Assembly: GCA_020341875.1 (NCBI GenBank)
Contig: CP070839.1
Coordinates: 2,253,300 to 2,288,713, forward strand
Source of the DNA: Candidatus Zixiibacteriota bacterium
GTDB lineage: Bacteria > Zixibacteria > MSB-5A5 > SM1-73
Reading direction: 5' to 3'
DNA length: 35,414 bases
This document shows positions 917 to 19,537 of the stretch, piece after piece. How positions within the stretch are numbered: position 1 is the stretch's first letter; every line of letters begins with the position of its first letter. The position numbers and the translations under genes were made by a program. Below the pieces are notes generated by a model. The model was given only the letters and a program-made list of their open reading frames with translations, was not told where the DNA came from and made no database searches.

Positions 917-3100
917 CTAGAAGAGTATTCCCTCCTTTTTCTCCGGACGTTGCTGTATCTCCTTGAACAGCACCCTGGCGGTCGTGTCCGGAACCTCGTC
1001 GGAAGGGTGCAGATCGCAGATCCCCTCCGGCAGGGTTGCCTGAGTGAAGACGTCGGTCATGATTCTGGGGCACTGGTCCGTGGCCAAAAGCCCGCTTTGC
1101 AGGCAGGTGGTCTTGAAATATACTCCGGGAGGAATCTTGAAATCCTCCACCGGCAAGCTCTCGTGCGCCTTTATCATGAAGTCGGCCCATACCGGGAGGG
1201 CGGTGTGAGCGCCGGTGACGTTCTTGCCTATGACCGTCTTGTCGTCGTACCCTATCCACACTCCCGCGGTGATCTGACGGGTAAACCCGGTGAACCAATT
1301 GTCCATGCAGAAGTCAGAGGTTCCGGTTTTTCCGCCGGCCGGGTGGGTGAACCCCCTGGCCCTGGCTCCGAATCCTGTGCCCCGGTTAATTACCGACCCG
1401 AGCATGGTGGTCATGACGTAGGCCGTCTGCGCGGAGAGCACCTCCTCCCTTCTGGAGAATTCTTTCTCTTCTAAGATCTTCCCATAACGATCGGTTATCT
1501 TGAGAACGTATTTCGGCTCCACTCTTATCCCCCCGTTGGGAAAGACCGAAAACGCCGTCACCATTTCCCATAAGGTCACCTCGGACGAGCCCAAAGCAAG
1601 GGAGGGATACGGCGCCAGCCGGGAACTTATGCCCATGTGGGAGGCAAAGAAGATGGTCTGCTGGGGAGTGACCTTCTGTATCAACTTGGCGGAGATCACG
1701 TTTATCGATTTGGCCAAAGCTTCCCTCAAGGTTACCGGACCGCGGAAGATTTCATCGAAGTTCTCGGGACTCCATTCCTTGCCATCCTCGCCGGTTAAAA
1801 TTATGGGGATGTCGTACATGATGTCGGTGGGCCTGGAACCGTTGTCAATCGCCGCGGTATAGACGAACGGTTTGAAACCGGAACCGGGCTGCCGAAGGGC
1901 CTGCACCGCTCGATTGAACTTGCTTTGGCGAAAGTCCTTTCCTCCGATCAGGACCAGGATGTTGCCGTTCGAGTTGTCTAAGGCCACCGTGGCCCCCTGA
2001 ATCTGCTTGTACTCTCGCTTGGTGACCGGTTCCTCCCCGGTTGAGTCGATCACCTCCAGGGTGTAATTGGTATCTGTCAAGGCCCGGGTCCGCTCCATGG
2101 CCATCTGACGGGCGTCCAACTCCCCCGAGAGGAGCTCCTCCGCCGTCTTCTGCAATTCCAGATTCAGCGTGGTGTAAACCGACAGTCCTTCCCGGTAGAG
2201 CACGTCCTCCCCGTACTTCCTCTCTAGATAGCGTCTCACCATCTCGGTGAAATACGGTGCCTCGCCCACAGGTGCGGAGGCGGGATCAACCTCCAGAGGC
2301 AGGCTCCTCAGCGAATCCGCTAACTCAGCGGATATTCTGCCGAAGTCCTTCATAGACCGCAAAACGATGTTTCTTCTTCTCAGCGCCAGATCCGGATGCT
2401 TGATGGGCGAGTATCGGCTTGGATTCTTGGGGATGCCTACCAGTATGGCACAATCGGAGATATTCAGATCCTCTATGTTCTTACTGAAATAAAGCTGTGC
2501 CGCGGCTTCCACTCCGTATGCTCCGCTGCCAAAATAACACTGGTTTAGATACATCTCCAGGATCTCTTCCTTGGTGTAGTTTCTCTCGATCTTGATCGCG
2601 GTCAGTATCTCTTTTATCTTGCGAGCAATGGTCCTCTCCGGCGTGAGAAACAGAGTTCGGGCCAACTGCTGGGTGATGGTGCTGGTTGCCTTAATCCGTT
2701 CTCCGGACCAGAAGCCGTACCACACGGCGCGGCACATGGACAAAATACTTGCTCCCCAGTGATCGAAAAACCGTCGATCCTCCGTGGCCAGGAGAGCATC
2801 TATTAGATGGGGAGGCATCCTTTTCAGAGGCGTCAGTATGCGACGCTCGGTGAAGTACTCCTTGATCACCGTACTGTCGGCCGCATAGATTTTGGTAACC
2901 AAGCTGGGTTCGATGTTGTGCAGCTGGGACAAAGATGGAAGGTCCTTCTTATACGTATTATAGGTCTTGACAACCGCCACGAAGAAGACAATAACCACCA
3001 AAAGGAGTGCCCCGCAGGCGAGAAGAAGCTTCCTCCTCGTGTCCCAAAGCTGCCTTGCCCGTCGCCAGCCGATTCTCAAGAATTCAGTGTTCAGGTTCAT
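917..3100 (-). CDS. mrcA: Bifunctional class A penicillin-binding protein (PBP1A: GT51 transglycosylase + transpeptidase)
   Basis: N-terminal membrane anchor. GT51 motifs EDRRFFDHWG and RKIKE. Transpeptidase motifs SGFK (SxxK), SIN (SxN) and KTGT. Confidence 0.95.
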   Translation of the reverse strand: MNLNTEFLRIGWRRARQLWDTRRKLLLACGALLLVVIVFFVAVVKTYNTYKKDLPSLSQLHNIEPSLVTKIYAADSTVIKEYFTERRILTPLKRMPPHLIDALLATEDRRFFDHWGASILSMCRAVWYGFWSGERIKATSTITQQLARTLFLTPERTIARKIKEILTAIKIERNYTKEEILEMYLNQCYFGSGAYGVEAAAQLYFSKNIEDLNISDCAILVGIPKNPSRYSPIKHPDLALRRRNIVLRSMKDFGRISAELADSLRSLPLEVDPASAPVGEAPYFTEMVRRYLERKYGEDVLYREGLSVYTTLNLELQKTAEELLSGELDARQMAMERTRALTDTNYTLEVIDSTGEEPVTKREYKQIQGATVALDNSNGNILVLIGGKDFRQSKFNRAVQALRQPGSGFKPFVYTAAIDNGSRPTDIMYDIPIILTGEDGKEWSPENFDEIFRGPVTLREALAKSINVISAKLIQKVTPQQTIFFASHMGISSRLAPYPSLALGSSEVTLWEMVTAFSVFPNGGIRVEPKYVLKITDRYGKILEEKEFSRREEVLSAQTAYVMTTMLGSVINRGTGFGARARGFTHPAGGKTGTSDFCMDNWFTGFTRQITAGVWIGYDDKTVIGKNVTGAHTALPVWADFMIKAHESLPVEDFKIPPGVYFKTTCLQSGLLATDQCPRIMTDVFTQATLPEGICDLHPSDEVPDTTARVLFKEIQQRPEKKEGILF

Positions 3101-3288: not shown

Positions 3289-4299
3289 GTGATGAGCGCA
3301 ACGGTGGTCAGGGCCTTCAGGGGCAGAACGATTGAAAGCGTGCACCAGGTGGCGGTCGCAGTGGTGGATTCCTCCGGGAAGCTTCGATACTCCGCGGGCG
3401 ATCCGAATTTCGTGACTTTCCTGAGATCGTCAGCCAAACCCTTCCAAGCCTTGGCCGTGGTGGATTCCGGGGCGGCAGAGGCGTTCGGGCTGACTCAGCA
3501 GGAAATCGCGATTATAGCCGGTTCGCACAATGGAGAGAAGAAGCACGTTAAGGTCGTGCGCGGCATCTTGAAAAAGGTAGGTTTGAACAAAGGCCATCTT
3601 CAGTGTGGCACGCACATTCCGCACCACTACACCGCCTTGGGCATCACCCCGCCCAAGAAACGCTTTTCTTTTCTTCAGCACAACTGCTCCGGGAAACATG
3701 CCGGGATGCTGCTGACGTGCGTCTATGAAGGTTGGAATGTGAAGAACTACCTTAATCCCCGTCATCGCGTGCAGAAGCTGATCACAAAGAAGATCTCAGA
3801 TCTCTGTGAGTACCCCGAACGGAAGATAAAGATCGGTATAGAAGGATGCGGAGCACCCACCCACGCTCTTCCCCTGAAGAATATGGCTATTGGATTCTCC
3901 AAGCTGAAAAACTTCCGAGCTAAACTTGAGCGTACCTCGCAGTCACTTCAGGTGGTGGCCGACTCTATGTGGAGATACCCGGATATGATCTCCGGAAGGG
4001 GAAGGCTGGACTACGATGTGGCCTTGGCGAGCAAGCGGAATATCCAGGCCAAGGCAGGGGCCGAAGCTTTGCACTGCGCTTTTGTTTTGGATAAGGGCTA
4101 CGGACTCGCAGTCAAGATCCTGGATGGTTCCAGGAGAGCAACTGGGCCAGCAGCCATGGAGACCTACCGGCAGTTGGGTGTTCTAAACAAGAGCCAGCTG
4201 AGAAACCTGCGGGAATGGGCGCTTCCTTCCGTATTCAATCATCAAGGAAAAAAAGTCGGATTTCTCCGGCCCGACTTCAGGCTCAAGCGGGTAAGATAG
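3289..4299 (+). CDS. Asparaginase-II-like protein (PF06089-type, Rhizobium etli AnsA-like family)
   Basis: 336-aa ORF with family-typical RSSAKPFQA, IAGSHNGE, CSGKHAGML and GCGAPT blocks. Start is GTG 3289 or the adjacent ATG 3292. Confidence 0.75.
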   Translation: MMSATVVRAFRGRTIESVHQVAVAVVDSSGKLRYSAGDPNFVTFLRSSAKPFQALAVVDSGAAEAFGLTQQEIAIIAGSHNGEKKHVKVVRGILKKVGLNKGHLQCGTHIPHHYTALGITPPKKRFSFLQHNCSGKHAGMLLTCVYEGWNVKNYLNPRHRVQKLITKKISDLCEYPERKIKIGIEGCGAPTHALPLKNMAIGFSKLKNFRAKLERTSQSLQVVADSMWRYPDMISGRGRLDYDVALASKRNIQAKAGAEALHCAFVLDKGYGLAVKILDGSRRATGPAAMETYRQLGVLNKSQLRNLREWALPSVFNHQGKKVGFLRPDFRLKRVR

Positions 4300-4365
4300 C
4301 TCCTCAATCGCGCCGCCAATCATCAGATTCGTATTCGTGCTCGGAGCCGCTCGGCACAGAAGAAA

Positions 4366-4399
4366 GCACCCAAGCCTCGGAGGCCTGGGTGCCTTTTTT
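4366..4399. terminator. Bidirectional hairpin terminator (copy 1 of a terminator repeated after each dockerin gene)
   Basis: GCACCCAAGCC (4366-4376) / GGCCTGGGTGC (4382-4392), followed by TTTTTT on the + strand and TTTCTTCT on the - strand. Lies between convergent genes. Confidence 0.65.
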
Positions 4400-4416
4400 C
4401 GTCTTCTCTGGGTCCC

Positions 4417-4959
4417 TCAACAGGCCGGCGGGTCCCCACCTCTATAGAGATAGTTGACCAGGTAGACCACATCTCCCACGTTTACTATCCCGTCGCACGT
4501 GATGTCGCCTGCCTCTAACGGTACAGGTTCTTCTCCGCTTCTGTACAGGTAGTTCACCAGGAAGACTACGTCACCAACGTTGATTATCCCGTCTCCGTTG
4601 ACATCGCCGCGGTCGACCTGCGTCGTATATACGTACCCCGCCTTCGCGCCCCAGCTGGTACTCGCGGAAAGGCCGGCGGGCGACGGCTGCCCGCCGGAGT
4701 TGACTGGAATCCTGTAGCTATCCGACTCCGATTTGCCGCCGAAGCCGCTAATGGCATCCGTCACAAGCCGGTAGCCTTGCTTTGAATCACCCAAAGGGGC
4801 CTTTTGCGGACTACTCCCCTTTGCTGCGCTAATCACAGTTTGGGTCTTTGGCTGTGAATTGGCAGACTGGATCTTGCGGTCGGATCCCGCGTACGCAAGC
4901 AGGACCACCGTCAGAGCCACGACCCCCAGGACAGCCGTTATGAATATCGTCTTTTTCAT
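4417..4959 (-). CDS. Small secreted protein with C-terminal double dockerin (paralog 1)
   Basis: Signal peptide MKKTIFITAVLGVVALTVVLLAYA. Conserved module GYRLVTD..GFGG.SESD.YRIPVNSGGQPS. Two dockerin-type repeats, GDVNGDGIINVGDVVFLVNYLYRSG and GDITCDGIVNVGDVVYLVNYLYRGG. AAGGAG SD. Confidence 0.85.
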   Translation of the reverse strand: MKKTIFITAVLGVVALTVVLLAYAGSDRKIQSANSQPKTQTVISAAKGSSPQKAPLGDSKQGYRLVTDAISGFGGKSESDSYRIPVNSGGQPSPAGLSASTSWGAKAGYVYTTQVDRGDVNGDGIINVGDVVFLVNYLYRSGEEPVPLEAGDITCDGIVNVGDVVYLVNYLYRGGDPPAC

Positions 4960-5057
4960 TGTTCGCTCCTTTGTTAGCCCTCCGGGACAGTTCTTGTTTC
5001 GACTTTGCTCAGGACGGTGAGTCTGTCGAATCGGTTGGCTGTCCCTGAGCGGTCACC

Positions 5058-6611
5058 TCAGCGAAACTTGATGCTGCCATGTTGGTATAAAGAGACTTGT
5101 CCACTCCCGTGAATGCGAATGCCCTTTGACTGATCTCCTCTGCTGAAAAGAAGAGTGTTGTTGGCGCTTGTTCCCTGAAAGTCTATGGAGCCGCCTGATG
5201 TGCTGGTGCAGGTCACGGTCACTCCCGGTAGAAACTGCAGATTGTGACCAGGCTGAAAGGTTGCGCCGTTGCTCTCAGCGTCCTGGTCAAAATAACGATA
5301 GGGAAATGACGGGGGTGAGTATGTCCCGGAAAATGATGATCCCAGCGCGTTCTTTGGCCTGAGGTATATTACCATCATTTGGCTTGGCGTACCCTGGGAT
5401 TCACATATCTCATCCAGAGTATGCCAGTAGTTGCATAGCTGGGTGCTTCCGTCTGGACAATCGCACTCCGCGTCCGGGCCCCATCCAAAGTTCATATGAT
5501 ACTGCTTGGTTCTTCCGATCTCTCGCCACCCGTCACAGACGATGACATGATCCGGCAACCAATCCGTCTGAATGAGGTATAGTATAGGTCGATTCTTATT
5601 TATATCGAACTGTATGTAAGAGAACCATACGTCGGGTGGTATCATGCCACGGGGAAGACACTCAGCATCTGTGTCATATCGGAAATGATCCTCGAATCCA
5701 TCGAGCATGTCTCTGCCAAAAAAATCGTCACAAGGTTCCGCGTAAGACCAGTCGCAATTATACCACATCCCAGCTGCCTCACCAGCTTCATGGCATAACT
5801 CTGCTACCGCATCGATCTGGGCCTGGGTGACTGTATCACCATGTTCGTCCTCGAACCTAAGCTCAAGGGTGTCATAGATATACTGGTCGAGTATGTTGGG
5901 CCAATCATAGTAATCGTTGTATGGGCTGTCCTGCCCATACGGCGGCCAGCTCCAGTAACGCATGATCTGAGCGCCAGCCGTAGCAGTGCAACCCACCAAG
6001 GTATTCGAGTTGTAATCGCCATAATAGTCCCAATCGCAGCCCTCGTCTGGACAATCATCATTATAAGGGGGCTGTTGGTGCCAAGCAGAAGAAAGTAGAA
6101 CTTCGCCTTCCTGGTAGTCCAATCGGTGGAAGTCACCTGCCGCGAGCTGGTCCCACGCGTCTCCATACCTGATGTCAAGAATACTCTCCAGGTCTGAGGT
6201 TCGCACCGACTGGATCGGCCCGATTCTTGTCTCGATCGCTTCTATGATGCCCCCCATACTCGTTTTTAGTATGACTGCGATCCCCAGGTTGGATTCCGGA
6301 TCCAGACAGGCCGTCGATGAGTAAGCCTTGACCGGGGCAAGTTCCCTGCGTAGGGACACCACAATAAAGCCTCTGGGACTCACATGGCAGAAATATCCGA
6401 TCACCTTTTCCCCGTGCTTGAACTCCTCGATTCCGCTGACATAAGCTGTGGTTGATCCTCCCCAGTCTCCTCTCTTCTCGATGATCAGATTCACCCAGTT
6501 CTCCGCAACAGTCTCGACCTCGTTCATGGTCGCCATTTGGGCTTGGATAGGCGATATCATACCGATAAACCCCACCGAGGCGACCAGAATTGTCATAATC
6601 AAGTTTCTCAT
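5058..6611 (-). CDS. Secreted cysteine peptidase, C10 (streptopain/SpeB-like) with N-terminal inhibitor-type propeptide
   Basis: Catalytic-Cys block VGCTATAGAQIMRYW (compare SpeB GCVATATAQIMKYH), His block DHVIVCDGW, and HMNFGWG. The N-terminal region resembles the Spi/I69 propeptide. I prefer ATG 6611, which lies 8 nt after AGGAGG, over the track start GTG 6620. Confidence 0.82.
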   Translation of the reverse strand: MRNLIMTILVASVGFIGMISPIQAQMATMNEVETVAENWVNLIIEKRGDWGGSTTAYVSGIEEFKHGEKVIGYFCHVSPRGFIVVSLRRELAPVKAYSSTACLDPESNLGIAVILKTSMGGIIEAIETRIGPIQSVRTSDLESILDIRYGDAWDQLAAGDFHRLDYQEGEVLLSSAWHQQPPYNDDCPDEGCDWDYYGDYNSNTLVGCTATAGAQIMRYWSWPPYGQDSPYNDYYDWPNILDQYIYDTLELRFEDEHGDTVTQAQIDAVAELCHEAGEAAGMWYNCDWSYAEPCDDFFGRDMLDGFEDHFRYDTDAECLPRGMIPPDVWFSYIQFDINKNRPILYLIQTDWLPDHVIVCDGWREIGRTKQYHMNFGWGPDAECDCPDGSTQLCNYWHTLDEICESQGTPSQMMVIYLRPKNALGSSFSGTYSPPSFPYRYFDQDAESNGATFQPGHNLQFLPGVTVTCTSTSGGSIDFQGTSANNTLLFSRGDQSKGIRIHGSGQVSLYQHGSIKFR

Positions 6612-6626
6612 GATCGTCACCTCCTA

Positions 6627-8567
6627 TTACTGTAGGGTTACCAGGACCAATATCTGTCCCTTTTTGCCCTTTTCCAGCCTTTGCATCGCCTTGCCTAATA
6701 TCGAGCCCTGGGCACGTGCATAATCTGTAACCTTCATAGCATAGCCGGGTGTGGCAGATGTGGTCAAGAGGTCGCCGGGCTGGACTCCTGCTTCTTTGGC
6801 ATCCACGTTGCAGTAGACCCGACCTGCCAGAGCCACGTCAAAGTCGAATTGATCTGCGCCCAGACGCACGCCTGACCCCTGACCGTTTGCTCCGGCCACA
6901 ATGCCTGCAACCTTTTTGTCGTACGGTTGGTCTGAGATCGCCAGTTTACCGGGATTGTCCGGATCGATGATCAAGACTGACCCAGGATCTATCTTCTTGT
7001 CATTGGACACGTCAAATCCCTCGGCGTAATCAAGACCTTCACCCAATTCCATAACCGTGGTTCCACTGTTGTTTCGAATTAGGACTCTACCCCACAAGTC
7101 CGCTGAGTAGCAATCCCCATAGGCTCGGGCCCTAATGCCCGCACCACCGGTCGTATGGCAATCTGCGTACACACCAAAATTCTCGTCACCAAGCACCCCA
7201 GAGTTACCTGTCGCAGGATGGGTGCCGACGATGGCCTGAGTTGGCGACTGGCCATACACGCCGCAAACACTCCCGTACCCGCGGATACCTATGGCACCCT
7301 CACCATAGATAGCAGCGTCAGACACACCATCACCGCCAACACTCAGTCTTGATTGAGGGTTGGTCGTCCCGATGCCGACGTTATCGTTGTTAATCGTAAT
7401 CCCATGACCTGAAGCGTTAGTGATGTCGAACTGGTTCTGCATAGAACTGATGTCATAAACTGACATGTTGCCGCGCACATCCAGCTTCTCTGCGGGGCTG
7501 GTCGTCCCGATGCCCACGTTGCCCGAATCATCAAGATACATCAGAGTAGGGTTCACGCCTTGGTCACTGTCTGTCCCGTACGTTACCCGAAGTCCTTTGC
7601 CACCTCCAGCCGTCTCACGGAGGATGCCCCACTTATCCGCCAGAACTCCAGCTGTTATCTCTCCAAATGTAATTCCGGATCCGAGAGTGCCGCCCTCGTA
7701 GCTGTAAAGCCCGACTATCGCATCATTGTTCTCAACGATAAGCACGTCTGCCGCGAGTGCATCAGGCGACAAGGAGACAGTTGATTCCTGAATGTGCTGC
7801 TTGGACAAAGGTGCCTCCGTCCCGATGCCGACATTGCTCGCACCATGTGTATAGATGGTGCCGTCCTGTTTCACGCTGAGGCGCCCCGTTCCCTGCGTTT
7901 CCAAGATGACGTTACCAGCGCCGGTCGGTGCCGCCACTTTGATGTGACCATTACCGTCTTGAGAGATTTTGCCTGCGGCCGTGTTGGGCGCGCTCAGAAG
8001 CTCGACTCTGGCCCAGTCACCTGCCACCCGTATCCTGTCGTTGACCTCAAGATTCGCCTCGGGGCTGGTGGTCCCGATCCCAACCTGATCTGTATCTGTC
8101 TCCAACCTCACCACACTGCCATCATCCACCCAGCCGCCGCCTCCCCCGGCGCCGTCCGTGCTGCCCGCCCGGTAAGCGTAGGGAACACTCACCATAGGCT
8201 TGAGCGGCGCCATCTCCGGGTCCGATTCCACCTGGACACCAAGGTACTTGACGTTCCCGTCAAACACTGCCGAGGGTATCGTATCTGCTGCCCCCAGGAG
8301 AACATTGAATATCCCGTCTTCCACAATCACCTGCATCTGGGTTTCGCTCCAGTCCGCGGGTGAGCCCAGCGTATCTGGATAAATAGAAAAAGTCATCTGC
8401 ACCGTGTCGTTCACCAGACCTCCTCCGGCATCAGTCAACTTGCCCTGATAATTGATCATGTGGGGGACATCAGCAGATGCGAGAGGGGCGAAGAAAAAGA
8501 CCATCATCCCCGCCAGCACAAAAACAAAGCTTTTGCGAGCAGACGCTCGCCCGTCTGGTCGTGCCAT
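6627..8567 (-). CDS. Secreted tail-fibre-like repeat protein, paralog A
   Basis: Start moved to ATG 8567 (GAAAGGAG SD; MARPDG...SFVFVLAGMMVFFFAPLASA signal). The N-terminal domain DVP.(M/S)INYQGKLT...WSETQ...GIFNVLLG...KYLGVQVE.DPEM.PLKPMV is shared with B and C. Repeated (N/D/Q)VGIGT(T/E).P....L.V motifs are typical of phage-tail-fibre-like proteins. Distinct C-terminal domain (GLDYAEGFDVS...VAGIV...GDLLTTS.TPGYAMK). Confidence 0.85.
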   Translation of the reverse strand: MARPDGRASARKSFVFVLAGMMVFFFAPLASADVPHMINYQGKLTDAGGGLVNDTVQMTFSIYPDTLGSPADWSETQMQVIVEDGIFNVLLGAADTIPSAVFDGNVKYLGVQVESDPEMAPLKPMVSVPYAYRAGSTDGAGGGGGWVDDGSVVRLETDTDQVGIGTTSPEANLEVNDRIRVAGDWARVELLSAPNTAAGKISQDGNGHIKVAAPTGAGNVILETQGTGRLSVKQDGTIYTHGASNVGIGTEAPLSKQHIQESTVSLSPDALAADVLIVENNDAIVGLYSYEGGTLGSGITFGEITAGVLADKWGILRETAGGGKGLRVTYGTDSDQGVNPTLMYLDDSGNVGIGTTSPAEKLDVRGNMSVYDISSMQNQFDITNASGHGITINNDNVGIGTTNPQSRLSVGGDGVSDAAIYGEGAIGIRGYGSVCGVYGQSPTQAIVGTHPATGNSGVLGDENFGVYADCHTTGGAGIRARAYGDCYSADLWGRVLIRNNSGTTVMELGEGLDYAEGFDVSNDKKIDPGSVLIIDPDNPGKLAISDQPYDKKVAGIVAGANGQGSGVRLGADQFDFDVALAGRVYCNVDAKEAGVQPGDLLTTSATPGYAMKVTDYARAQGSILGKAMQRLEKGKKGQILVLVTLQ

Positions 8568-8914
8568 GACGTAGCTCCTTTCTTTAGGACAAAGGTTAGC
8601 CTCCTGCAAAAAAAACATAGCCCCTTTTAGGAAGTCGTTAGCGGTTACTGTGCAGCTTCCACCTCCTTGAAAAGAGTTTTTGCAGTAAAGATCAACGTCT
8701 CAAATAAAATCCCTGCTGCGTGCGTCCAGCGCAAAGACACCCATTCGCTGTCCTGCCTCATCAGCGCAACAAGACAGGCTGACACAAACACAAGATTTCC
8801 TGGTAGTAGTTCTGCCTACAATGTCATCCCCAACGGTGCCCCGCAAAAGACTTCCGGCAAGTCATGGCGAAGCCGACAGAGCCTAAGCTACGTCACCGCA
8901 CAAGCATTGATCGC
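8568..8914 (-). promoter_or_regulatory. Conserved long 5' leader, copy 1 (upstream of fibre A)
   Basis: Shares ordered blocks with the other two leaders. On the RNA strand these are GGCT(C/T)CGCCAT(T/G)ACTTGCCGGAAG, TTGGGGATGACATTGTA(G/A)G(C/G)AGAACTACT (8805-8833), AAGGAGGTGGAA, GACTT(C/T)C..AAAAGGGGC and GGCTAAC. Confidence 0.5.
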
Positions 8915-8920
8915 ATTGGG

Positions 8921-8948
8921 AATATACACTATCAACCGACGAAGTCAA
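8921..8948 (-). promoter_or_regulatory. Sigma70-like promoter of cassette 1
   Basis: Minus strand reads TTGACT (8948-8943), 16-nt spacer, TATATT (8926-8921). The same hexamers and spacing occur in all three cassettes. Confidence 0.6.
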
Positions 8949-9070
8949 GGTTAATCGTTGACGGGAAGCACGAGACAACTCATTCCGCCATCCGCATACT
9001 TTGCCAACCGTCAAGTTCCGATTCACCCTCTGACCTCAGATAACCGCACACGATGAATTCGCCTGATGAT

Positions 9071-9104
9071 AAAAAAAGCACCCAAGCCTCGGAGTCCTGG
9101 GTGC
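9071..9104 (-). terminator. Rho-independent terminator after dockerin paralog 2
   Basis: Minus-strand RNA GCACCCAGG...CUUGGGUGC (9-bp stem including one G-U pair) followed by a run of 7 U (9077-9071). Confidence 0.7.
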
Positions 9105-9134
9105 CTTCTTTTCATCCTCCTTAATCTGGATGCA

Positions 9135-9674
9135 TCAACAGGCCGGTGGGTCTCCTCCTCGGTACAGATAGTTGACCAGATAAACTATGTCGGCCACGTT
9201 CACCACGCAATCACTGGTGGCATCTCCGGCCTCCGGTGGGCAGGGCTCTGATCCTCCCCTGTAGAGATAGTTCACCAGATACACGATGTCAGCCACGTTG
9301 ATCAATCCGTCGCCGGTGGCATCGCCGCGCTTCACGTGAGAAGCGTGCACAAAACCGGCTCCTATCCCCCAGGTGGCGCTCTCCGAGAGACCGGCAGGTG
9401 AGGGTTGACCTCCGGAGTTGACCGGAATCCTGTAGTTATCCGACTCAGATTCCCCTCCAAAGCCGTCCAGGACGTCGGTCACCATCACGTATCCCTGCCG
9501 AGTGTCTGTGAATTGCGCCCTCTGCTGAACGCCGGTGGGCGATGGCTTCACTTGAGTTACCGCATTCTGCTTGACTCTCTTCGGTTGAACCTGCTTATTC
9601 GACTCAGCATGCACCGTCACTGCCAGTAGCACCGCCACCACCAGGAGTACCGTTCCGAATTTGATCTTATTCAT
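9135..9674 (-). CDS. Small secreted protein with C-terminal double dockerin (paralog 2)
   Basis: Start moved to ATG 9674 (AAGGAG SD; MNKIKFGTVLLVVAVLLAVTVHA signal). Same GY.MVTDVLDGFGGESESDNYRIPVNSGGQPS module and two dockerin repeats, ending YLYRGGDPPAC. Confidence 0.85.
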   Translation of the reverse strand: MNKIKFGTVLLVVAVLLAVTVHAESNKQVQPKRVKQNAVTQVKPSPTGVQQRAQFTDTRQGYVMVTDVLDGFGGESESDNYRIPVNSGGQPSPAGLSESATWGIGAGFVHASHVKRGDATGDGLINVADIVYLVNYLYRGGSEPCPPEAGDATSDCVVNVADIVYLVNYLYRGGDPPAC

Positions 9675-9768
9675 TTTTGTCTCTCCTTTTTTGAGGCGCT
9701 GTCTTTCATCCACGTGGTCAAGGACCCGGCGGATGGTTTGACCGCGCACTCAAATGTCACGTGATGGC

Positions 9769-12267
9769 TTATTCGCCTGCTTTTTCCAGCCGTTCCTTCT
9801 CCATCCTTGCGGCGGCTTCGGGATACAGGTATGCGTCGTTCTCTCCAGCAGCGGTGTAGTCAAGGCGCCTGTCCTCAAATCCCTTGCGCTTGGCTACCAC
9901 ACGGTAGGAAAACGGGACATTAGTCGTGCCGTTCTTCAACTCCACAACATCAAACCCGGTAGTCCCCTTGGAAACATACACGCCGTTACAGTCGCCCTCG
10001 AGCTGCACGAACACCTTCATGGGGTTTGCAGCGTTTATGGTTACGGTCTCCAGAAACAGAGCATCCAGCTCTATGTGTGTTTGGCCATTTACCAGCGTTC
10101 CTTCGCCGAAATCCTCAAACCAGTTTTCAGGCGATTCCTGGCAATAGAGAAGCGTCGGTCCCTGGGAGGTCTTTACCACACAGCTTTTGGTGCCGGACCC
10201 TCCCAACCCGCCTGAGTAATAGACGCCATAGTTGGTGGTTCCGCCGCTGGCATAACCCCTTACACCGTAGTTGGAGCCCGAGCCGGTAGCATTACCGGAT
10301 ACACCGTACTTGTTACCTCCTGCCCCACTGGTAGTAGCATAACCATAAACTCCGTAATAGGTCGAGGTTCCAGTTGCAATAACGCGGGCATAAACGCCCT
10401 GGTAGCCGCCTTCAAAATATCCACCAATCCCGTAGTAATCTTGGGGAGTGGACTTCCCATAAACTGCTCTGGCATCTTGGCTAGAAGTCCCGGTGTGTTC
10501 AGAACGCAGCACGTAGAAATCTGTTGACTCAACGTCAAGTTGTGCGTCCGGGCTTGTGTCCCCGATACCGACGTCTCCGTCGGTGGCAACGGTTACCGAT
10601 GCAACGCCTCCATCTTCGTTCAGGGAAAGGGCGCCGTTGTCAACCAGGGTTACCCTTGCGGTTCCTCCAGCATCCTTGATGTCGGCTCCTCTGACTCTTA
10701 TATCTCCGTTTACGTCCAGCTTATCCGCTGCGGTCACTCCTATGCCCGCGTTACCGTCAACAATTAAGTGGTCCGTGCCGGGATCAGAGGTTCCACCAAC
10801 ATGAAATCCTCCTAAGGCATAGCCATAATCAGAAATATAAACTCTGTTGAAAGTCGGGTTGTCAGTTGTCTGAACGTTCTGGTTCATGGCGTAGAGTTCA
10901 TTAGGCCCTTGGCCTGTGTTTACTGTGGCAAAAGTGACAGCGTCACTTGTCCGAACGTTCTGGTTCATGTCATAGAGTTCATTAGGCCCTTGGCCTGTGT
11001 TTACTGTGGCAAAAGTGACAGCGTCACTTGTCCGAACGTTCTGGTTCATGGCGAAAAGCTCATTATTCCCATAGCCTGTGTTAATGACGTTTGCGCTAAC
11101 GTCCCCAAAAGACACGTTGTCGGTTGTCCGAACGTGCTGGTTCATGGCGTAGTGCTCAAAATTCCCCTGTCCTGTGTTAACTGTGTTCGCATAAAAGTCG
11201 CCGCCCACATGAAGCTTATAACCAGGGGTGGTTATCCCGATGCCAACTTGGCCGCCGTCCTCAATCACCATCCTGGAACCGATCCCGGTTTCCGAGAAAT
11301 GCAGTGCAATACCTTGATAGTGTACCTGCCATTCGGAGCCTCCTGTGTCACGAAAGTCCAGAGCGTAACTCTGTGATGAGCCGCTTCCTTCGAGGGCGAT
11401 GTTTCCCAGAACTCCTAACTTCTGACTTGGGCCCGTTGTGCCGATGCCGATATCACTGCCGCTTTGATAGATTGTCGAATTGCCAACGGTGGTTGGGGCT
11501 GTGAATTTGGGGATGTAATTGGCTGTGCCGCTTCCTCCGATTCCACCGGCCGTGGAGGAAAAGGTCACGGTATTGGCTCCGTCATTTGGCGTTATGGTCA
11601 TATTGCTACCAGGAACGAAGTCGACATTTCCACCCGCGTTGCTCACACCGTCCACGCTCACCAAGGCACCCGTTTGCCCGGCGCTAACCGAGTGCGGATT
11701 GTCTGACCTGGCTGAGTGGGTCTCTCCAATGCTTATGTTGTCGGCTCCATCATTGGGGGTGATGGTGATGGCATTAGTCTGGATCAGGTCCACATTTCCG
11801 CCCGGATTAGAAACGCCGTCCACGCTCGCTATTCCCGCTGCGGGCACGTTTCTGGCGTAGTCTGCGGTATCCGCCTCCTGTGCGTGATGTGAACCGAACG
11901 CGTAGGCCGTCGTCACCATCGGCTTCAGGGGGCTCATCTCCGGATCGGTCTCCACCTGAACACCCAAGTATTTGGCGGTTCCATCAAAGATCGAAGCTGG
12001 CAATGGATTAACACTTCCCAAAAGAACATTGAATATGCCCTCTTTCACCTCCACTTGTGTTTGGGTCTCACTCCAGTCCAACACGGTGCCGAATGCGTCT
12101 GCGTAAATGGTGAAGGTCATCTGAACCGTGTCGTTAAGACAGCCACCTGAAGCGGTGGTCAGCTTACCCTGATAATTGATACTGTCGGGGACGTCAGCAG
12201 ATGAAACAGAGGCAAAGAAGAAGATCACCATCCCCACGGCCAGAAAAACGAGGCTCTTGCGCGCCAT
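9769..12267 (-). CDS. Secreted tail-fibre-like repeat protein, paralog B
   Basis: Signal MARKSLVFLAVGMVIFFFASVSSA and the shared N-terminal domain. GIGTT.P..KL motifs, internal 27-aa tandem repeats and YG(V/I).G Gly/Tyr-rich repeats. The C-terminal domain ESPE.WFEDFGEG...FSYR.VAKRKG.ED is shared with C. Confidence 0.88.
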   Translation of the reverse strand: MARKSLVFLAVGMVIFFFASVSSADVPDSINYQGKLTTASGGCLNDTVQMTFTIYADAFGTVLDWSETQTQVEVKEGIFNVLLGSVNPLPASIFDGTAKYLGVQVETDPEMSPLKPMVTTAYAFGSHHAQEADTADYARNVPAAGIASVDGVSNPGGNVDLIQTNAITITPNDGADNISIGETHSARSDNPHSVSAGQTGALVSVDGVSNAGGNVDFVPGSNMTITPNDGANTVTFSSTAGGIGGSGTANYIPKFTAPTTVGNSTIYQSGSDIGIGTTGPSQKLGVLGNIALEGSGSSQSYALDFRDTGGSEWQVHYQGIALHFSETGIGSRMVIEDGGQVGIGITTPGYKLHVGGDFYANTVNTGQGNFEHYAMNQHVRTTDNVSFGDVSANVINTGYGNNELFAMNQNVRTSDAVTFATVNTGQGPNELYDMNQNVRTSDAVTFATVNTGQGPNELYAMNQNVQTTDNPTFNRVYISDYGYALGGFHVGGTSDPGTDHLIVDGNAGIGVTAADKLDVNGDIRVRGADIKDAGGTARVTLVDNGALSLNEDGGVASVTVATDGDVGIGDTSPDAQLDVESTDFYVLRSEHTGTSSQDARAVYGKSTPQDYYGIGGYFEGGYQGVYARVIATGTSTYYGVYGYATTSGAGGNKYGVSGNATGSGSNYGVRGYASGGTTNYGVYYSGGLGGSGTKSCVVKTSQGPTLLYCQESPENWFEDFGEGTLVNGQTHIELDALFLETVTINAANPMKVFVQLEGDCNGVYVSKGTTGFDVVELKNGTTNVPFSYRVVAKRKGFEDRRLDYTAAGENDAYLYPEAAARMEKERLEKAGE
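10866..11195 (-). repeat. In-frame tandem repeat inside fibre B (81-nt unit, 4 copies, first two nearly identical)
   Basis: TTGTC(T/C)GAACGTTCTGGTTCATG... recurs at 10866, 10947 and 11028 (period 81 nt) and at 11124 (96-nt spacing). It encodes NTGQGPNELY(A/D)MNQNVRTSDAVTFATV units. Confidence 0.85.
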
Positions 12268-12646
12268 CGTGTACCTCCATACGTTAGAAAAACGTTAGCC
12301 CCTTTCTGTGAGCAAAACATGCCCCTTTTGAGAAGTCATTGGCGGTTGTTCTTTCTGCTTCACCTCCTTGTTAAAAATTCAAATCTAACAGTAGACGATA
12401 TGAATGAATTTCCGCCTATGTGCTTGGAGCGCGAAGCGACCCATCGCACGCACTGCCTGGTTCTCCCAGCAGCGCAGGCTGGCGCAAACACAATATCACA
12501 TGATAGTAGTTCTCCTTACAATGTCATCCCCAATCGTACCCCAGACAAGGCTTCCGGCAAGTAATGGCGGAGCCTTCCAAGCGTAATCTACCTCGCGAAG
12601 ACAAACAGCCTCTTTCAAATGCCGAACGGGCACAAATGCCGACTGT
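12268..12646 (-). promoter_or_regulatory. Conserved long 5' leader, copy 2 (upstream of fibre B)
   Basis: Same ordered blocks as copies 1 and 3. Positions 12546-12592 are identical to 15601-15647 over 47 nt. The three-way block lies at 12505-12533. Confidence 0.5.
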
Positions 12647-12652
12647 ATCAGG

Positions 12653-12680
12653 AATATACATTATCGACTGAAAAAGTCAA
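12653..12680 (-). promoter_or_regulatory. Sigma70-like promoter of cassette 2
   Basis: TTGACT (12680-12675), 16-nt spacer, TATATT (12658-12653) on the minus strand. Confidence 0.6.
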
Positions 12681-12802
12681 GATTTATCGCGAGCCGAAAG
12701 AACGAGACAGTTCACTCACCCCCCTGCATCTCCTGCCAATCCTCAAATCCAAATCCACTCTCCGAAGTCAGGCAGCCGCAAATCGTGAGTTTGCCTGACG
12801 AC

Positions 12803-12835
12803 AAAAAAGCACCCAAGCCTCGGAAGCCTGGGAGC
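12803..12835 (-). terminator. Terminator after dockerin paralog 3 (slightly degenerate copy)
   Basis: Same GCACCCAAGCC...hairpin sequence as at 4366 and 9078, with one extra mismatch, followed on the minus strand by a run of 6 U (12808-12803). Confidence 0.55.
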
Positions 12836-12859
12836 TTTTCTTCGTCTTCTCTCGATCTC

Positions 12860-13402
12860 TCAACAGGCCGGTGGGTCTCCTCCTCTGTAGAGATAATTGA
12901 CCAGGTAAACTACATCTCCCACGTTCACTATCCCATCGCTGGTCACGTCGCCGGCCTCGGCCGGACAAGGTTCACCTCCGCTTCTGTACAGATAATTCAC
13001 CAGATAGACTACGTCGCCAATATTGATTATGCCGTCGGCGTTGACATCTCCCCGGGTAACCCGAGTTGCCAGGACGTAGCCCGCTCCGACGCCCCAGTTG
13101 GCGCTCTCCGAAAGACCAATGGCTGATGGCTGCCCTCCGGAGTTTACCGGAATCCGGTAATTATCCGATTCCGATTCTCCTCCGAAGCCATCAAGGACAT
13201 CCGTTACGAGCTGATACCCTTGCTTTGAACCAGTGAACGGGGTAGTCTGCGGAAGACCGGCGGCCATCGATTTGATTTCAGCGACCTCCTTTGGCTTGAC
13301 CATCTTAGACCGCACTTCCTTGTTTGACTGAGCATGCACCACAAGCACCGCAGAGAACACCAGAGCCACAAGGAATATGATTCCTAATTTGATCCTATTC
13401 AT
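12860..13402 (-). CDS. Small secreted protein with C-terminal double dockerin (paralog 3)
   Basis: Start moved to ATG 13402 (MNRIKLGIIFLVALVFSAVLVVHA signal). Same conserved module and two dockerin repeats, ending YLYRGGDPPAC. Confidence 0.85.
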   Translation of the reverse strand: MNRIKLGIIFLVALVFSAVLVVHAQSNKEVRSKMVKPKEVAEIKSMAAGLPQTTPFTGSKQGYQLVTDVLDGFGGESESDNYRIPVNSGGQPSAIGLSESANWGVGAGYVLATRVTRGDVNADGIINIGDVVYLVNYLYRSGGEPCPAEAGDVTSDGIVNVGDVVYLVNYLYRGGDPPAC

Positions 13403-13468
13403 TTTTCTCGATCCTTTGTTATGGCACTTTTTTTCCATCACGAGTAGCTCCTGACAGCACAGGAAGAG

Positions 13469-15322
13469 CTACCTCTGTTCTCTCTCCTGTTCCATCCTCT
13501 TGTTCTCTGCCTCCATCTTCTCGCGCTGCCTTTTCATCTCTTGTCTTTGTTCTTCCAGCTTGGCCCACTCCTCTTCCGTCTCTGCCCGATGTCTTGCCTG
13601 CTGCCAAGCTACTTCCTCGGGCGTAGGTTTCCCCATCTTGGCTAACCGGATATCCTCGTATCCTTTTCTTTTGGCAACGATACGATATGAGAAGGGGACG
13701 TTTGCACTTGAAGGACCTATCACCTCAAAGGTGGCAGTGGTCTTATTCGCCACGGCCAAGGTTAGTGGTTCATCCTGCGGAGTCAGAAAAACATGATATT
13801 TCACTGAGGTGTTTACGGTCTGAGCGAATAATGGATCAATCTGAATTACTGCGCTCCCATTTAGTAGTCGTCCTTCTCCGAAATCCTCAAACCAGACCTC
13901 TGGCGATTCCTGCGAGTAAAGCAGGCGGTATTCACCATTATCCACCTTCACTGCCGCGCTCTTTCCGCCTAGGACCACCAGACTGTCAGTTATCCTGACA
14001 TCGCCGCCAAAATACCCCGCCCATCCGTAGGCAGCATTTGCGGATGCATAGACACCGTATCTTGTACCCGTCCCGGTAGCACCGCCAAAGGAATCGAAAT
14101 ATCCACCATAAACAGATCCGGTAGAACGATTTGAGGCAAGAACGTGTATGCCGCGGGTAGGCCCAGCGCTGGAATCCGGTACCGAAATGTCAACTCCCGT
14201 TCGCGCTCCTGTCCCAACATATGATGGAGGTGTGTAAAACGATGCGGCGACCGACCGGCCAGATGAGCTGTTGCTCGCTTCAGCGTGGATACCATACGTG
14301 TGAGCAGAGGAGGTACCATAACCCTCAGCCCATACCCCAACAGGGCCTCCTGTCCCATCAGAAGAGGCTTGAAAGAATCCCCCTTTGGGGTACCCTGTGG
14401 AGGAATTGCTGGCATAGCCATAGACTCCGTAATGCCAGCCACTGGAGGAGCTGTAACTTCTAGCGTTTACGCCATAATGCGTTCCTGTGCCTGAAGCTGC
14501 GGCAGAAAAATACCCTGCGCAAACGTCCCCATCTGAACTATTTTCCGCTCTGCCATAAACACCGTAAGTATTTGCATTGGAAGAAGCGCTACCTGATGCT
14601 CGGATTCCGTAGTGAGTTCCTGTGCCTGAAGAGGGAGTCTCAAAATACCCCCCGTAAGCAACTCCAGTGGAAGTGTTCTCTCCATAACCCTTAATACCAT
14701 AGATTGCTGAACTGCTTCCGGTTGCTTTGCCCAAGAGAGCCGCGCCAGAGGCGGAAACAACACTGTCGGGTCCAGTGACATTCACGTATTTGTCGGTCAG
14801 AGTGCTCGTTCCCTCATACAAATCCGTCGCCACACCGGAGCGACCATAATCGTTAGCAGTCGAAAGAAAAGCCGACGCATGCTGTCCATCTAACAAGTCC
14901 GCATTCTCTGCGCTCCAGGCAAAATCGGCGGTATCTGCCTCATTCGACTTGTAAGCGTAAGCCGTGGTCACCATCGGCTTCAAAGGCGTCATCTCCGGAT
15001 CGGATTCCACCTGAACGCCCAAATACTTGGCAGCACCATCGAAGATCGAAGCCGGTAACGGATTAACACTTCCTAAAAGAACGTTGAATATCCCCTCTTT
15101 CACCTCCACTGCTGTTTGGGTCTCACTCCACTCCGACACGGTGCCGGATTCGTCGGTATAGATTGTAAAGGTCATCTGAACAGTGTCGTTGACACAACCA
15201 CCGCTGGCGGTGGTCAGCTTACCCTGATAATTGATACTGTCGGGGACGTCTGCAGATGAGACAGGGCAAAGAAGGAAAATTACCGCCCCCATCACCAGAA
15301 GCACAAAACTCTTGCGTAGCAT
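13469..15322 (-). CDS. Secreted tail-fibre-like repeat protein, paralog C
   Basis: Start moved to ATG 15322 (GAAAGGAG SD; MLRKSFVLLVMGAVIFLLCPVSSA signal). Shared N-terminal domain, with a 44-nt run at 15207-15250 identical to 12152-12195. LDGQHASAF fibre-type motif. Gly/Ser/Tyr-rich repeats (GTGTHYG..A...SS). Shared C-terminal domain plus a Glu/Arg/Lys-rich tail likely to form a coiled coil. Confidence 0.85.
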   Translation of the reverse strand: MLRKSFVLLVMGAVIFLLCPVSSADVPDSINYQGKLTTASGGCVNDTVQMTFTIYTDESGTVSEWSETQTAVEVKEGIFNVLLGSVNPLPASIFDGAAKYLGVQVESDPEMTPLKPMVTTAYAYKSNEADTADFAWSAENADLLDGQHASAFLSTANDYGRSGVATDLYEGTSTLTDKYVNVTGPDSVVSASGAALLGKATGSSSAIYGIKGYGENTSTGVAYGGYFETPSSGTGTHYGIRASGSASSNANTYGVYGRAENSSDGDVCAGYFSAAASGTGTHYGVNARSYSSSSGWHYGVYGYASNSSTGYPKGGFFQASSDGTGGPVGVWAEGYGTSSAHTYGIHAEASNSSSGRSVAASFYTPPSYVGTGARTGVDISVPDSSAGPTRGIHVLASNRSTGSVYGGYFDSFGGATGTGTRYGVYASANAAYGWAGYFGGDVRITDSLVVLGGKSAAVKVDNGEYRLLYSQESPEVWFEDFGEGRLLNGSAVIQIDPLFAQTVNTSVKYHVFLTPQDEPLTLAVANKTTATFEVIGPSSANVPFSYRIVAKRKGYEDIRLAKMGKPTPEEVAWQQARHRAETEEEWAKLEEQRQEMKRQREKMEAENKRMEQEREQR

Positions 15323-15702
15323 CACGCAACTCCTTTCGTTGGAAAAAACGTTAGCCCCATCTGTGAGCAAGACAGGCCCCCTCTTGAGAAGTCATCAGCA
15401 ATTGTTTTGTGTTTTCCACCTCCTTAGCCAAGGTTTGAATCTCAGAGTTAACGACATAAGTGAATATCCGCCCATGTGCGTCAAACGTGGAGACACGAGT
15501 CCGCTTTCCCGCATCGTTCCGGCAACGAAACAGGTGAACGCAAACGCGAAATCACGTGTCAGTAGTTCTGCCTACAATGTCATCCCCAACTTTGCCCCAG
15601 GCAAGGCTTCCGGCAAGTAATGGCGGAGCCTTCCAAGCGTAATCTACCGTGCGAAGACAAACAGCCTCTTTCAAATGTCAAACGGCCACAAATGCCTATT
15701 GT
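15323..15702 (-). promoter_or_regulatory. Conserved long 5' leader, copy 3 (upstream of fibre C)
   Basis: Same ordered blocks as copies 1 and 2. The three-way block lies at 15561-15589. Confidence 0.5.
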
Positions 15703-15708
15703 GTCAGG

Positions 15709-15736
15709 AATATACATTATCGAGTGAGAAAGTCAA
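15709..15736 (-). promoter_or_regulatory. Sigma70-like promoter of cassette 3
   Basis: TTGACT (15736-15731), 16-nt spacer, TATATT (15714-15709) on the minus strand. An 8-bp hairpin AAGAACGG/CCGTTCTT (15752-15771) lies just upstream. Confidence 0.6.
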
Positions 15737-15864
15737 GGTCTATCTTTGATCAAGAACGGATACCCGTTCTTCTGCAGAACATTTTAGCGGGAGCCTGAAG
15801 GCAGTTGGGTGTACCGAACAACGGCCAATCAACAAACCTGCCACAAGGGAACCATCTTGCCATT

Positions 15865-15930
15865 TTCAATGATCAAGGGAGAAAAGTCGGATTTCTCCAG
15901 CCCGACTTCAGGTTCACGCGGACAAGATAG
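15865..15930 (+). pseudogene. Remnant copy of the last 21 codons plus stop of the asparaginase-like gene
   Basis: Hand alignment of 15865-15930 against 4234-4299 gives 58 of 66 identical positions with no gaps. FNDQGRKVGFLQPDFRFTRTR* aligns with FNHQGKKVGFLRPDFRLKRVR*, and the stop codon is at the same position. No upstream coding continuation. Confidence 0.7.
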
Positions 15931-16009
15931 TTCTCTGCTCGACTTGTAGTCTCGAGTCGCTATTCTCTCGCCTCAAGAAGTCGAACACCAACGTCAGTTT
16001 CGCTTGGAC

Positions 16010-16136
16010 GAATCTGCGACTTCGGCTTGACCGAAAGCTCTCTCTCGCTTGATTGCACAAGGGGGAGAGAAGGACAGTACTTCATCACAGTCCCCCCAGG
16101 GGCGAGCACTCTATTTTGCGACTTTTCAAGAATAGG
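16010..16136 (+). repeat. Left copy of an imperfect direct repeat flanking the rSAM locus
   Basis: GAATCTGCGACTTCGGCTTGACCGAAAGCT... followed about 100 nt later by GGCGAGCACTC. Matches 19336-19460 at both ends with nearly equal internal spacing. Confidence 0.55.
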
Positions 16137-16323
16137 TAATCACCTGAGTTGAGAGGGATCGATTTTCCTCCCGAATCCCCGTCTTCCTTCCTGGTTCGGA
16201 CCTTAAAGCAAAAGAGCAGGGCCAATTTAAGCAGGGGCACAATAGCGAACCTAAAGACAAAATAGCGTCGGGTAATATACGTATGCGGGGGGATATATCA
16301 GTTGCGGGCCGGATAAAATATGC

Positions 16324-16352
16324 TTGACAAACGTGCTGTGATTCAATAGAGT
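16324..16352 (+). promoter_or_regulatory. Sigma70-like promoter of the rSAM/peptide operon
   Basis: TTGACA (16324-16329), 17-nt spacer, TAGAGT (16347-16352), about 100 nt upstream of ATG 16456. Confidence 0.55.
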
Positions 16353-16455
16353 GAGAATCGAAGATAATCTGTACAGCACTTTCGCAAGTAGGATTTCCGA
16401 TTTCGCTTGAAATGAACCTTCTCCCGGGACTCCAAGAGGGGAAGGCAGGGACATC

Positions 16456-17781: not shown

Positions 17782-17782
17782 T

Positions 17783-17887
17783 ATGATGAGATACATAGTC
17801 AAGCCCCAGGAGCCCGCTCCCAAGTCCTGCCCCTGGTATTGCACCAGGTTCTTCCCGATCCTTCCCCCGTACGTTGATGAGTTCTAA
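17783..17887 (+). CDS. Candidate RiPP precursor peptide 1 (34 aa, below the ORF-track cutoff)
   Basis: MMRYIVKPQEPAPKSCPWYCTRFFPILPPYVDEF. Tandem ATG ATG lies 4 and 7 nt after a GGAGG located in the 3' end of the rSAM gene, and the ORF starts 1 nt after that gene's stop. Paralogous to 18028-18156. Confidence 0.6.
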   Translation: MMRYIVKPQEPAPKSCPWYCTRFFPILPPYVDEF

Positions 17888-18027
17888 TGTTGTCGTCGGG
17901 AAGTCTTGGGAATCGAAGTGGTAGTCTCTTAAGTTGACGCTTGAGTGCGTTGGTCTGGCAGTCCTGAATCTGCATTCCGATCGGTTTGGGCTTTTGTTGT
18001 ATCGACGCTTGAAGAAGAGGAGGTGGA

Positions 18028-18156
18028 ATGATGAGGTACATAGTCAAACCCAAAGGGAATATCGTTGTACAGGGTTGTCGGTTTTTCCCGATTCTTCCTC
18101 CTGAGCCGCCACCGCCGCCGGAACCACCGCCGATACCCTGCCCGGCGTTGAACTGA
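18028..18156 (+). CDS. Candidate RiPP precursor peptide 2 (42 aa, below the ORF-track cutoff)
   Basis: MMRYIVKPKGNIVVQGCRFFPILPPEPPPPPEPPPIPCPALN. Same GGAGGTG-ATGATG arrangement. Shares MMRYIVKP and C(T)RFFPILPP with peptide 1. Confidence 0.6.
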   Translation: MMRYIVKPKGNIVVQGCRFFPILPPEPPPPPEPPPIPCPALN

Positions 18157-18220
18157 GCCGGGAAAGGAGTTTACTCACACAAGGCTGACGCACTCAAGCA
18201 TTGTAATAGGGATCAGGAAG

Positions 18221-19273: not shown

Positions 19274-19335
19274 AACCGACGCAAATCGGAGCTCGGCTGG
19301 TCAGCGTTGGTGGAGTGCTAAGCCCCGCCGAGGTG

Positions 19336-19460: not shown

Positions 19461-19537
19461 TCGGGAATCGGCTCACGCCGACCGGTCAATTTGAACGCGG
19501 ACGGGGGATACCATATGTTTCTCCCAGAAGATTTTTG

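Follow-up and report, generated by a model that had tools for sequence, protein, structure and literature searches.

A repeated asparaginase gene end in a Zixibacteria genome as the probable scar of an unequal recombination event

The asparaginase–HD locus and its repeated gene end

The window considered here, i.e., the whole stretch of DNA that was analysed, covers 35,414 nucleotides (nt) of a Candidatus Zixiibacteriota bacterium (GenBank assembly GCA_020341875.1, contig CP070839.1, positions 2,253,300 to 2,288,713 of the forward strand), whose genome consists of one contig of 2.56 Mb. It holds an intact asparaginase II gene (Asp), which is followed by three cassettes of fibre-like and dockerin genes, by a fragment repeating the 3' end of Asp (Asp'), by a radical-SAM module and, finally, by an HD-domain gene (HD). 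The coordinates of all these features are collected in Table 1. We propose that the second Asp 3' end is probably the scar of one unequal (illegitimate) recombination event, which placed two versions of one segment head to tail. An earlier reading made from the letters alone (the sequence-only reading) had noticed the repeat and likened it to the att signature of an element integrating into the 3' end of a gene.

Table 1. Features of the window from PBP1 to the aconitase-family gene (window positions; aa, amino acids; ORF, open reading frame)
Feature	Positions	Strand	Basis
PBP1 gene	917-3100	-	Pfam/synteny
Asparaginase II gene (Asp), intact, 336 aa	3289-4299	+	Pfam PF06089, E = 6.6e-107, profile positions 1-321/322; single copy, syntenic beside PBP1 in relatives
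Repeat copy A: functional Asp 3' end, start of segment copy 1	4169-4302	+	
Cassette unit 1	4303-8975	-	Pfam; repeat families D1-D4, D11, D14
Parts of unit 1: terminator 4374-4398, dockerin protein 4417-4959, C10 peptidase 5058-6620, fibre-like protein 6627-8618, leader, promoter 8919-8961		-	
Joint J1, boundary of cassette units 1 and 2	8962-8990		promoter-upstream sequence fused to Asp-end relic
Cassette unit 2: dockerin protein 9135-9749, fibre-like protein 9769-12267, promoter 12651-12693	8976-12712	-	Pfam, repeats
Joint J2	~12694-12712		
Cassette unit 3: dockerin protein 12860-13441, fibre-like protein 13469-15370, leader, promoter	12713-15765	-	Pfam, repeats, alignment of relatives
Unit 3 promoter: -35 at 15736-15731, -10 at 15714-09		-	
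B1: duplicate of the host DNA that directly precedes the HD promoter (GTTCTTCTGCAGAACATTTT); segment copy 1 ends here	15766-15785	+	alignment to G004
Head-to-tail joint, 7 nt (AGCGGGA) assignable to neither side	15786-15792		
Asp': pseudogene fragment with Asp codons ~290-336, the stop and the next 18 nt in their ancestral form; segment copy 2 begins here	15793-15948	+	
Left copy of the ~155-nt gapped direct repeat flanking the radical-SAM module	16010-16165	+	
Radical-SAM enzyme	16456-17781	+	Pfam
Two small peptide genes	17783-17887, 18028-18156	+	ORFs
Radical-SAM/SPASM enzyme	18221-19273	+	Pfam
Right copy of the ~155-nt direct repeat	19336-19492	+	
B2: HD-upstream sequence, second occurrence (GTTTCTCCCAGAAGATTTTT); segment copy 2 ends here	19515-19535	+	
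HD promoter (-35 TTGCAA at 19538, -10 TAATAT at 19560) and HD-domain gene (ATG 19621)	19538-20158	+	Pfam HD domain, synteny; promoter block conserved in empty-site relatives
PALP enzyme, Thi4, M48 peptidase, Y1-transposase-like ORF, aconitase-family gene	20243-25582	+	

Between the two gene ends lie seven minus-strand genes, which are organized in three cassettes and encode three small dockerin proteins, three large fibre-like proteins and one C10 peptidase. Each cassette is made of one small dockerin and one large fibre-like protein, the C10 peptidase being additionally present in cassette 1. Each also possesses its own minus-strand promoter, carried by a conserved block (15707-15749 in cassette 3; see Table 1 for the other two), and the same terminator is found in all three. 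The sequence-only reading had described the interval as holding exclusively these three cassettes. This holds for the genes, but the last 20 nt of the interval before the joint (15766-15785) are a copy of the host sequence that lies upstream of HD.

The repeat itself is real, and the homology is longer than had been noted. Positions 4234-4299 and 15865-15930 are identical at 58 of 66 sites, ungapped, with TAG in register and both copies on the plus strand. When compared with the window's own Asp, the homology extends over 134 nt (4169-4302 versus 15800-15933, 77% identity), including identical runs of 17 nt and 13 nt. A blastn search against the whole 2.56-Mb genome (E = 7.6e-23) finds these two copies only, and no third. 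With the Asp genes of the closest relatives, the match covers 155-156 nt ungapped (window 15793-15948, 72-76%) and continues 17-18 nt beyond the stop codon; hence, the post-stop match of Asp' reaches further in the relatives than in the window's own gene. A longer alignment, of 15934-16045 with the post-stop region of G004 (one of these relatives) and with the inter-cassette spacers, was withdrawn as it did not beat shuffled sequences, ~18 nt past the stop being supported. Read in the Asp frame, Asp' has a TGA at 15796-15798, then 43 open codons with 56% amino acid identity to Asp residues 294-336. As judged from these alignments, Asp' is a pseudogene stub and not a chance match, and it shows no sign of function.

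The closest species to the window genome are G013, G001 and G004, whose Asp genes are 89-90% identical to that of the window. In an alignment of 131 bases that ends with the stop codon, Asp' displays 77% identity to the window Asp, 73-79% to the genes of these three species, and 47-63% to those of all other relatives; it groups with the clade G000/G001/G004/G013. The functional Asp genes of the four clade species are 85-88% identical to each other over the same stretch. The differences of Asp' are mostly private, one derived state being common with the window gene and one with the sister clade. Moreover, Asp' has retained ancestral states and an ancestral post-stop sequence that were lost from the window's functional copy. 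These private differences and retained states argue for an event about as old as the split of the clade species. The event would thus be old, of roughly the age of the split from G001, G004 and G013.

The gene order was followed in 40 relatives, searched with Asp, PBP1 and the PALP gene for the Asp-to-PALP distance, and with tblastn on the fetched regions for the order of the genes. The backbone PBP1-Asp-HD-PALP-Thi4-M48 is conserved across the Zixibacteria family, and the adjacency of Asp and HD holds across the order, including the sister family. Asp and HD are adjacent in 11 family members, with an Asp-to-PALP distance of 0.85-0.98 kb; this distance rises to ~3.3 kb in G001, G004 and G013, and to 15.9 kb in the window. 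Each of these three species carries one dockerin-plus-fibre cassette at the Asp-HD site, oriented as in the window, and among the searched family members only these three closest species have one there. No second Asp fragment was found in G001, G004, G013 or any other relative searched. From this distribution, the Asp|HD adjacency would be ancestral, and HD is the original right-hand neighbour of Asp. The comparison with empty sites, which had been suggested along with the sequence-only reading, therefore bears out that DNA was inserted between Asp and its original neighbour.

Two relatives present other changes in this neighbourhood. G002 (L025 12036-12449) has an extra 137-aa ORF between Asp and HD, giving a 750-nt spacer, i.e., another small lineage-specific addition in the slot. 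G005 (L037, G005:C53, and L118, G005:C14) has lost Asp; a 626-aa dockerin protein precedes its PBP1, HD-PALP is found on a different contig, and the Asp neighbourhood has been independently rearranged.

A segment present twice, head to tail

The nature of the right-hand repeat is revealed by what precedes it. In G004, G013 and G001, the cassette promoter is followed within ~50 nt by ...CTTCTGCAGAAGATTTTT|GTTGCAATTT..., the -35 box of the HD promoter. This HD promoter block is retained by every empty-site genome, which makes B1 host sequence rather than a part of the island. In the window, the sequence on the cassette-promoter side ends at 15785 (CAGAACATTTT), where it abuts the Asp fragment. 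Window positions 15688-15785 align to G004 L023:13979-14075, which in G004 continues into the HD -35 box, and window positions 19525-19620 align to G004 14065-14160. The 11 nt CAGAAGATTTT are present once in G004 and twice in the window (15775-15785 and 19525-19535), where they bracket 3,750 extra bases. This extra segment (15786-19535, 3.75 kb) is composed of 7 bases, then of Asp' in its first ~150 nt, and then of the radical-SAM module. These alignments place Asp' at the left end of a segment bearing the radical-SAM module and joined to a copy of the HD-upstream sequence, and not at the end of the cassette island.

Both ends of the segment are duplicated in the same order and orientation, the Asp 3' end being found at 4169 and 15793, and the motif CAGAAsATTTT at 15775 and 19525. 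Segment copy 1 (4169-15785) and segment copy 2 (15793-19535) stand head to tail, so that the segment end abuts the segment start at 15785-15793, and the single-copy order is present in G004, G013 and G001.

In the reading that we favor, the segment would begin at Asp codon ~290 and close with the motif CAGAAsATTTT, which directly precedes the HD -35 box. Copy 1 would complete the functional Asp and carry the fibre/dockerin cassettes, and copy 2 would be made of the dead Asp fragment with its ancestral post-stop sequence, of the radical-SAM/SPASM peptide module and, at its end, of the live HD promoter. Such an arrangement could be reached by two routes. By the first one, an illegitimate joint (B1|Asp') and a single homologous exchange would have stacked two alleles of the Asp-HD spacer, one with cassettes and one with the radical-SAM module. 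This could have taken place between sister chromosomes, or with DNA that had been taken up from a sister lineage (homology-facilitated illegitimate recombination). By the second one, the segment, empty at that time, would have been duplicated in tandem, and each copy would later have received its own cargo. We favor allele stacking over duplication first, the former being simplest because the two copies share nothing detectable inside. Additional unequal exchanges, along with exchanges involving paralogous cassettes at other genomic loci, would subsequently have created the three cassettes or preserved them. In conclusion, the feature is an ordinary, old rearrangement, for which no new mechanism is required.

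The inside of copy 2 is informative on what it was before receiving the module. The ~155-nt gapped direct repeat that flanks the module reaches an alignment score of 44, the maximum obtained with shuffled sequences being 28. The non-coding part of copy 2 (15949-16165 plus 19493-19535) amounts to ~260 nt, which is the size of an ordinary empty-site spacer, and no remnant of a dockerin gene, fibre gene, cassette promoter or terminator was found in this copy. Copy 2 looks like the uncassetted version of the spacer with an inserted radical-SAM module. Within the family, the radical-SAM/peptide/SPASM module is present in this genome and in G007 only. In G007 (L033, G007:C26, ~4940-8240), it has a 268-aa gene on one side and an FMN-reductase gene on the other, and is flanked by the 7-nt repeat CTTARGT (CTTAAGT/CTTAGGT); the corresponding site is unoccupied in this genome (see also genome 986957-988282). 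The nucleotide homology between the window and the G007 module is confined to the coding part (16450-19234), and the flanks of the G007 module show neither homology to the window flanks nor conserved ends. This occurrence at different sites in the window and in G007 indicates that the module moves between sites, without conserved ends.

The joints between the cassettes also involve the end of Asp. At J1 and J2 (from ~8962 and ~12694), the cassette-promoter-upstream sequence is joined to CGAGACAA/G, matching the last Asp codons plus stop of the relatives, CGAGATAG. The last ~8 nt of Asp are kept there and followed by ~150 nt homologous to the post-Asp-stop region of G001, G004 and G013. The breakpoint of the cassette repeat unit thus lies ~8 nt before the Asp stop, and that of the Asp' unit ~135 nt before it. 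Differing breakpoints in one gene end argue for unequal or illegitimate recombination, since a site-specific recombinase would reuse one crossover point.

The cassettes themselves have distinct affinities. The promoter region of cassette 3 is orthologous to that of the single cassette of G004, G013 and G001, and the closest relative of its dockerin protein is the one in the G001 cassette. For cassette 2, the dockerin protein is, with strong support, the sister (74% identity) of a paralogue located at genome 396,983-399,097, and both cassettes, although 1.86 Mb apart, have their terminator in common. This sisterhood suggests that cassettes exchange or copy between distant loci, and the affinities of cassettes 2 and 3 taken together suggest that the array is old and has exchanged with other loci. 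Potential partners are numerous: the fibre N-terminal domain has ~19 paralogues in the genome, several of them in tandem arrays (e.g., 646-650 kb, 1308-1312 kb and 2125-2130 kb), and the small dockerin protein has seven or more full-length ones. The fallback offered by the sequence-only reading, a recombination hot spot in which the cassette array expanded, is therefore essentially right. No stub of a neighbouring gene comparable to Asp' was found at the eleven other fibre/dockerin loci of this genome.

As side observations on these protein families, dockerin domains number at least 84 per genome here and in several searched relatives across the order and the class, and are fewer in other relatives. 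The fibre gene of cassette 2 contains four in-frame 81-nt tandem repeats (10861-11199), two of which are 95% identical. No paper was found in the literature on Zixibacteria plus dockerin, and exact-protein look-ups gave no other assembly of the window's strain.

Several observations weigh against one unequal event between two versions of the segment. Firstly, no genome carrying the radical-SAM allele (Asp-spacer-rSAM-SPASM-HD) was found in 20 relatives, in the whole family or among metagenome contigs, the nearest homologues lying in other contexts. Secondly, the interiors of the two copies are not homologous, with no significant similarity beyond ~18 nt past the stop, so that a plain tandem duplication is insufficient alone. 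Thirdly, a comparison of B1 with B2 inside the window alone is only weakly significant, its score being reached in 20 of 500 shuffles, and the argument rests on the alignment to relatives. Fourthly, over 15793-15930 the substitutions of Asp' are clustered in its 5' half, with 22 in 65 positions (43/65 identical) versus 8 in 66 (58/66 identical) in the 3' half, a clustering that neutral decay does not predict. As the same clustering is obtained against all four clade genes, gene conversion with the window gene is no explanation, and neither an RNA family (Rfam) nor a stable RNA fold that could explain it was obtained for Asp' and the sequence around it. Finally, the sliding identity of Asp against the sister species is flat (72-94%), without a mosaic marking an imported 3' end; there is thus no sign of a recently imported 3' end.

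Other readings of the repeat

A more far-reaching reading is that the Asp-HD spacer acts as a dedicated capture slot, in which cargo modules, such as the surface fibre/dockerin cassettes and the radical-SAM peptide module, are stacked repeatedly by recombination anchored in the Asp 3' end. We consider this rather unlikely. If true, it would amount to a 3'-displacement in the style of Rhs and type VI secretion system (T6SS) loci taking place at a housekeeping gene, and it could be a general route for many of the fibre/dockerin arrays of Zixibacteria.

It is also unlikely that the extra 3.75 kb are a mobile radical-SAM element, which would have acquired the Asp stub at a previous site and would have been inserted by a transposition-like process in trans, with an 11-bp target duplication (CAGAAsATTTT). 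The 11-nt direct repeat that bounds the extra segment is what suggests it, together with the location of the G007 module elsewhere, within its 7-nt flanking repeat, at a site that is empty here. However, the two flanking repeats differ in length (7 versus 11 nt), the homology stops at the limits of the coding part without terminal inverted repeats or conserved ends, and no transposase is present in or beside the segment. Moreover, the Asp stub comes from the own clade of the genome, where Asp always adjoins the slot, so that a distant previous site is unneeded.

The integration proposed by the sequence-only reading is improbable. In this scenario, the fibre/dockerin island would have entered the Asp 3' end by site-specific recombination through an Asp-like attP, the integrase being lost or acting in trans, and Asp' would be the displaced original end (attR). 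The same-strand direct repeats bracketing 11.5 kb next to an intact Asp, the 17- and 13-nt runs that are identical in both copies and the empty sites of relatives are all in line with such an event. But Asp' is absent from the cassette-bearing sister species, in which the cassette leads without interruption into the HD promoter. The repeats are not located exactly at the island boundaries, 20 nt of HD-upstream host sequence and 7 unassigned nt preceding Asp'; the new joint is thus between host HD-upstream sequence and Asp'. Empty sites contain one repeat copy, as the scenario would have it, but so do the occupied sites of G001, G004 and G013. The inter-cassette joints use a different Asp breakpoint, and the cassette leaders are confined to the Asp-HD locus in the genome.

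Mobility genes and composition do not help the integration scenario either. As the sequence-only reading had observed, the island is devoid of mobility functions: Pfam finds no recombinase among the seven island genes and their neighbours, and no transfer RNA gene lies in the island. The only transposase-like gene near the island is the Y1/IS200-type ORF (23741-24232), which is syntenic in relatives without the island. The G+C fraction of the island is 0.530, that of the genome 0.527; hence, the compositional contrast that had been suggested as a check is absent. The tetranucleotide distance of the island does stand at the 98th percentile, but three of the five other fibre arrays of the genome deviate equally, so that the deviation characterizes the gene family and is no sign that the island is foreign. 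As for the Y1 (IS200-like) ORF itself, it encodes 163 aa and is accompanied by 65-nt direct repeats with hairpins at 23678-23742 and 24220-24284; its synteny in G002, G003, G014 and G015 suggests a domesticated or REP-associated type.

The decay of a complete second asparaginase paralogue at the right-hand position, which the sequence-only reading had itself named as its refutation, is hardly tenable: the existence of an old fragment is all that speaks for it, and all 38 relatives with Asp are single-copy and have no paralogue at this site, and the HD-upstream sequence comes within 7 nt of Asp', with neither room nor trace for an upstream Asp.

Comparison with known systems

The reading as a recombination scar corrects an annotation trap, in which a gene-end repeat bracketing accessory genes resembles an att pair until the sister genomes are compared. 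Moreover, it documents, at base level and with a date, how the spacer of an uncultured Zixibacteria lineage has grown from ~0.25 kb to 15 kb, gaining surface-protein cassettes and a peptide-modification module without a dedicated mobility gene.

Genomic islands and integrative and conjugative elements integrate into the 3' end of tRNA or protein-coding genes, and their att repeats regenerate the gene. The Asp-HD locus is similar to them in that direct repeats of a gene 3' end bracket an accessory region and leave the gene intact. It differs from them by the absence of a recombinase, by a right boundary that is not of the island|att type, by island-bearing relatives without the second repeat and by variable breakpoints.

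Tandem segmental duplications, whose joints reportedly form by unequal or illegitimate recombination (work attributed to Anderson and Roth and to Reams and Roth), are a further model. Joints of this type are also treated in PMC3411829. As in these duplications, the end of the segment abuts its start, both ends are found twice in the same order, and the sister species are single-copy. Unlike them, the two copies carry unrelated cargo, and a single duplication is insufficient unless it took place before both cargo insertions.

In the Rhs, contact-dependent inhibition (CDI) and T6SS effector loci, C-terminal displacement and orphan arrays have been proposed to arise via homology-facilitated illegitimate recombination (PMC5361080, citing de Vries & Wackernagel 2002, Prudhomme et al. 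2002 and Jackson et al. 2009). The anchor gene here differs from theirs, being a housekeeping asparaginase without a variable toxin tip, and no mosaic signal is seen in it. On the other hand, the resemblances are several: new DNA lies beside a conserved anchor gene whose 3' end is intact, the former neighbours of that gene have been shifted downstream along with an older 3' stub, arrays grow through recurrent events, and all this proceeds without an integrase. As to the alleles of the Asp-HD site, the one with a cassette occurs in G001, G004 and G013, and the one with the radical-SAM module was not found in the genomes searched. A displaced 3' stub is present at this site, downstream of the new DNA and with the anchor gene intact.

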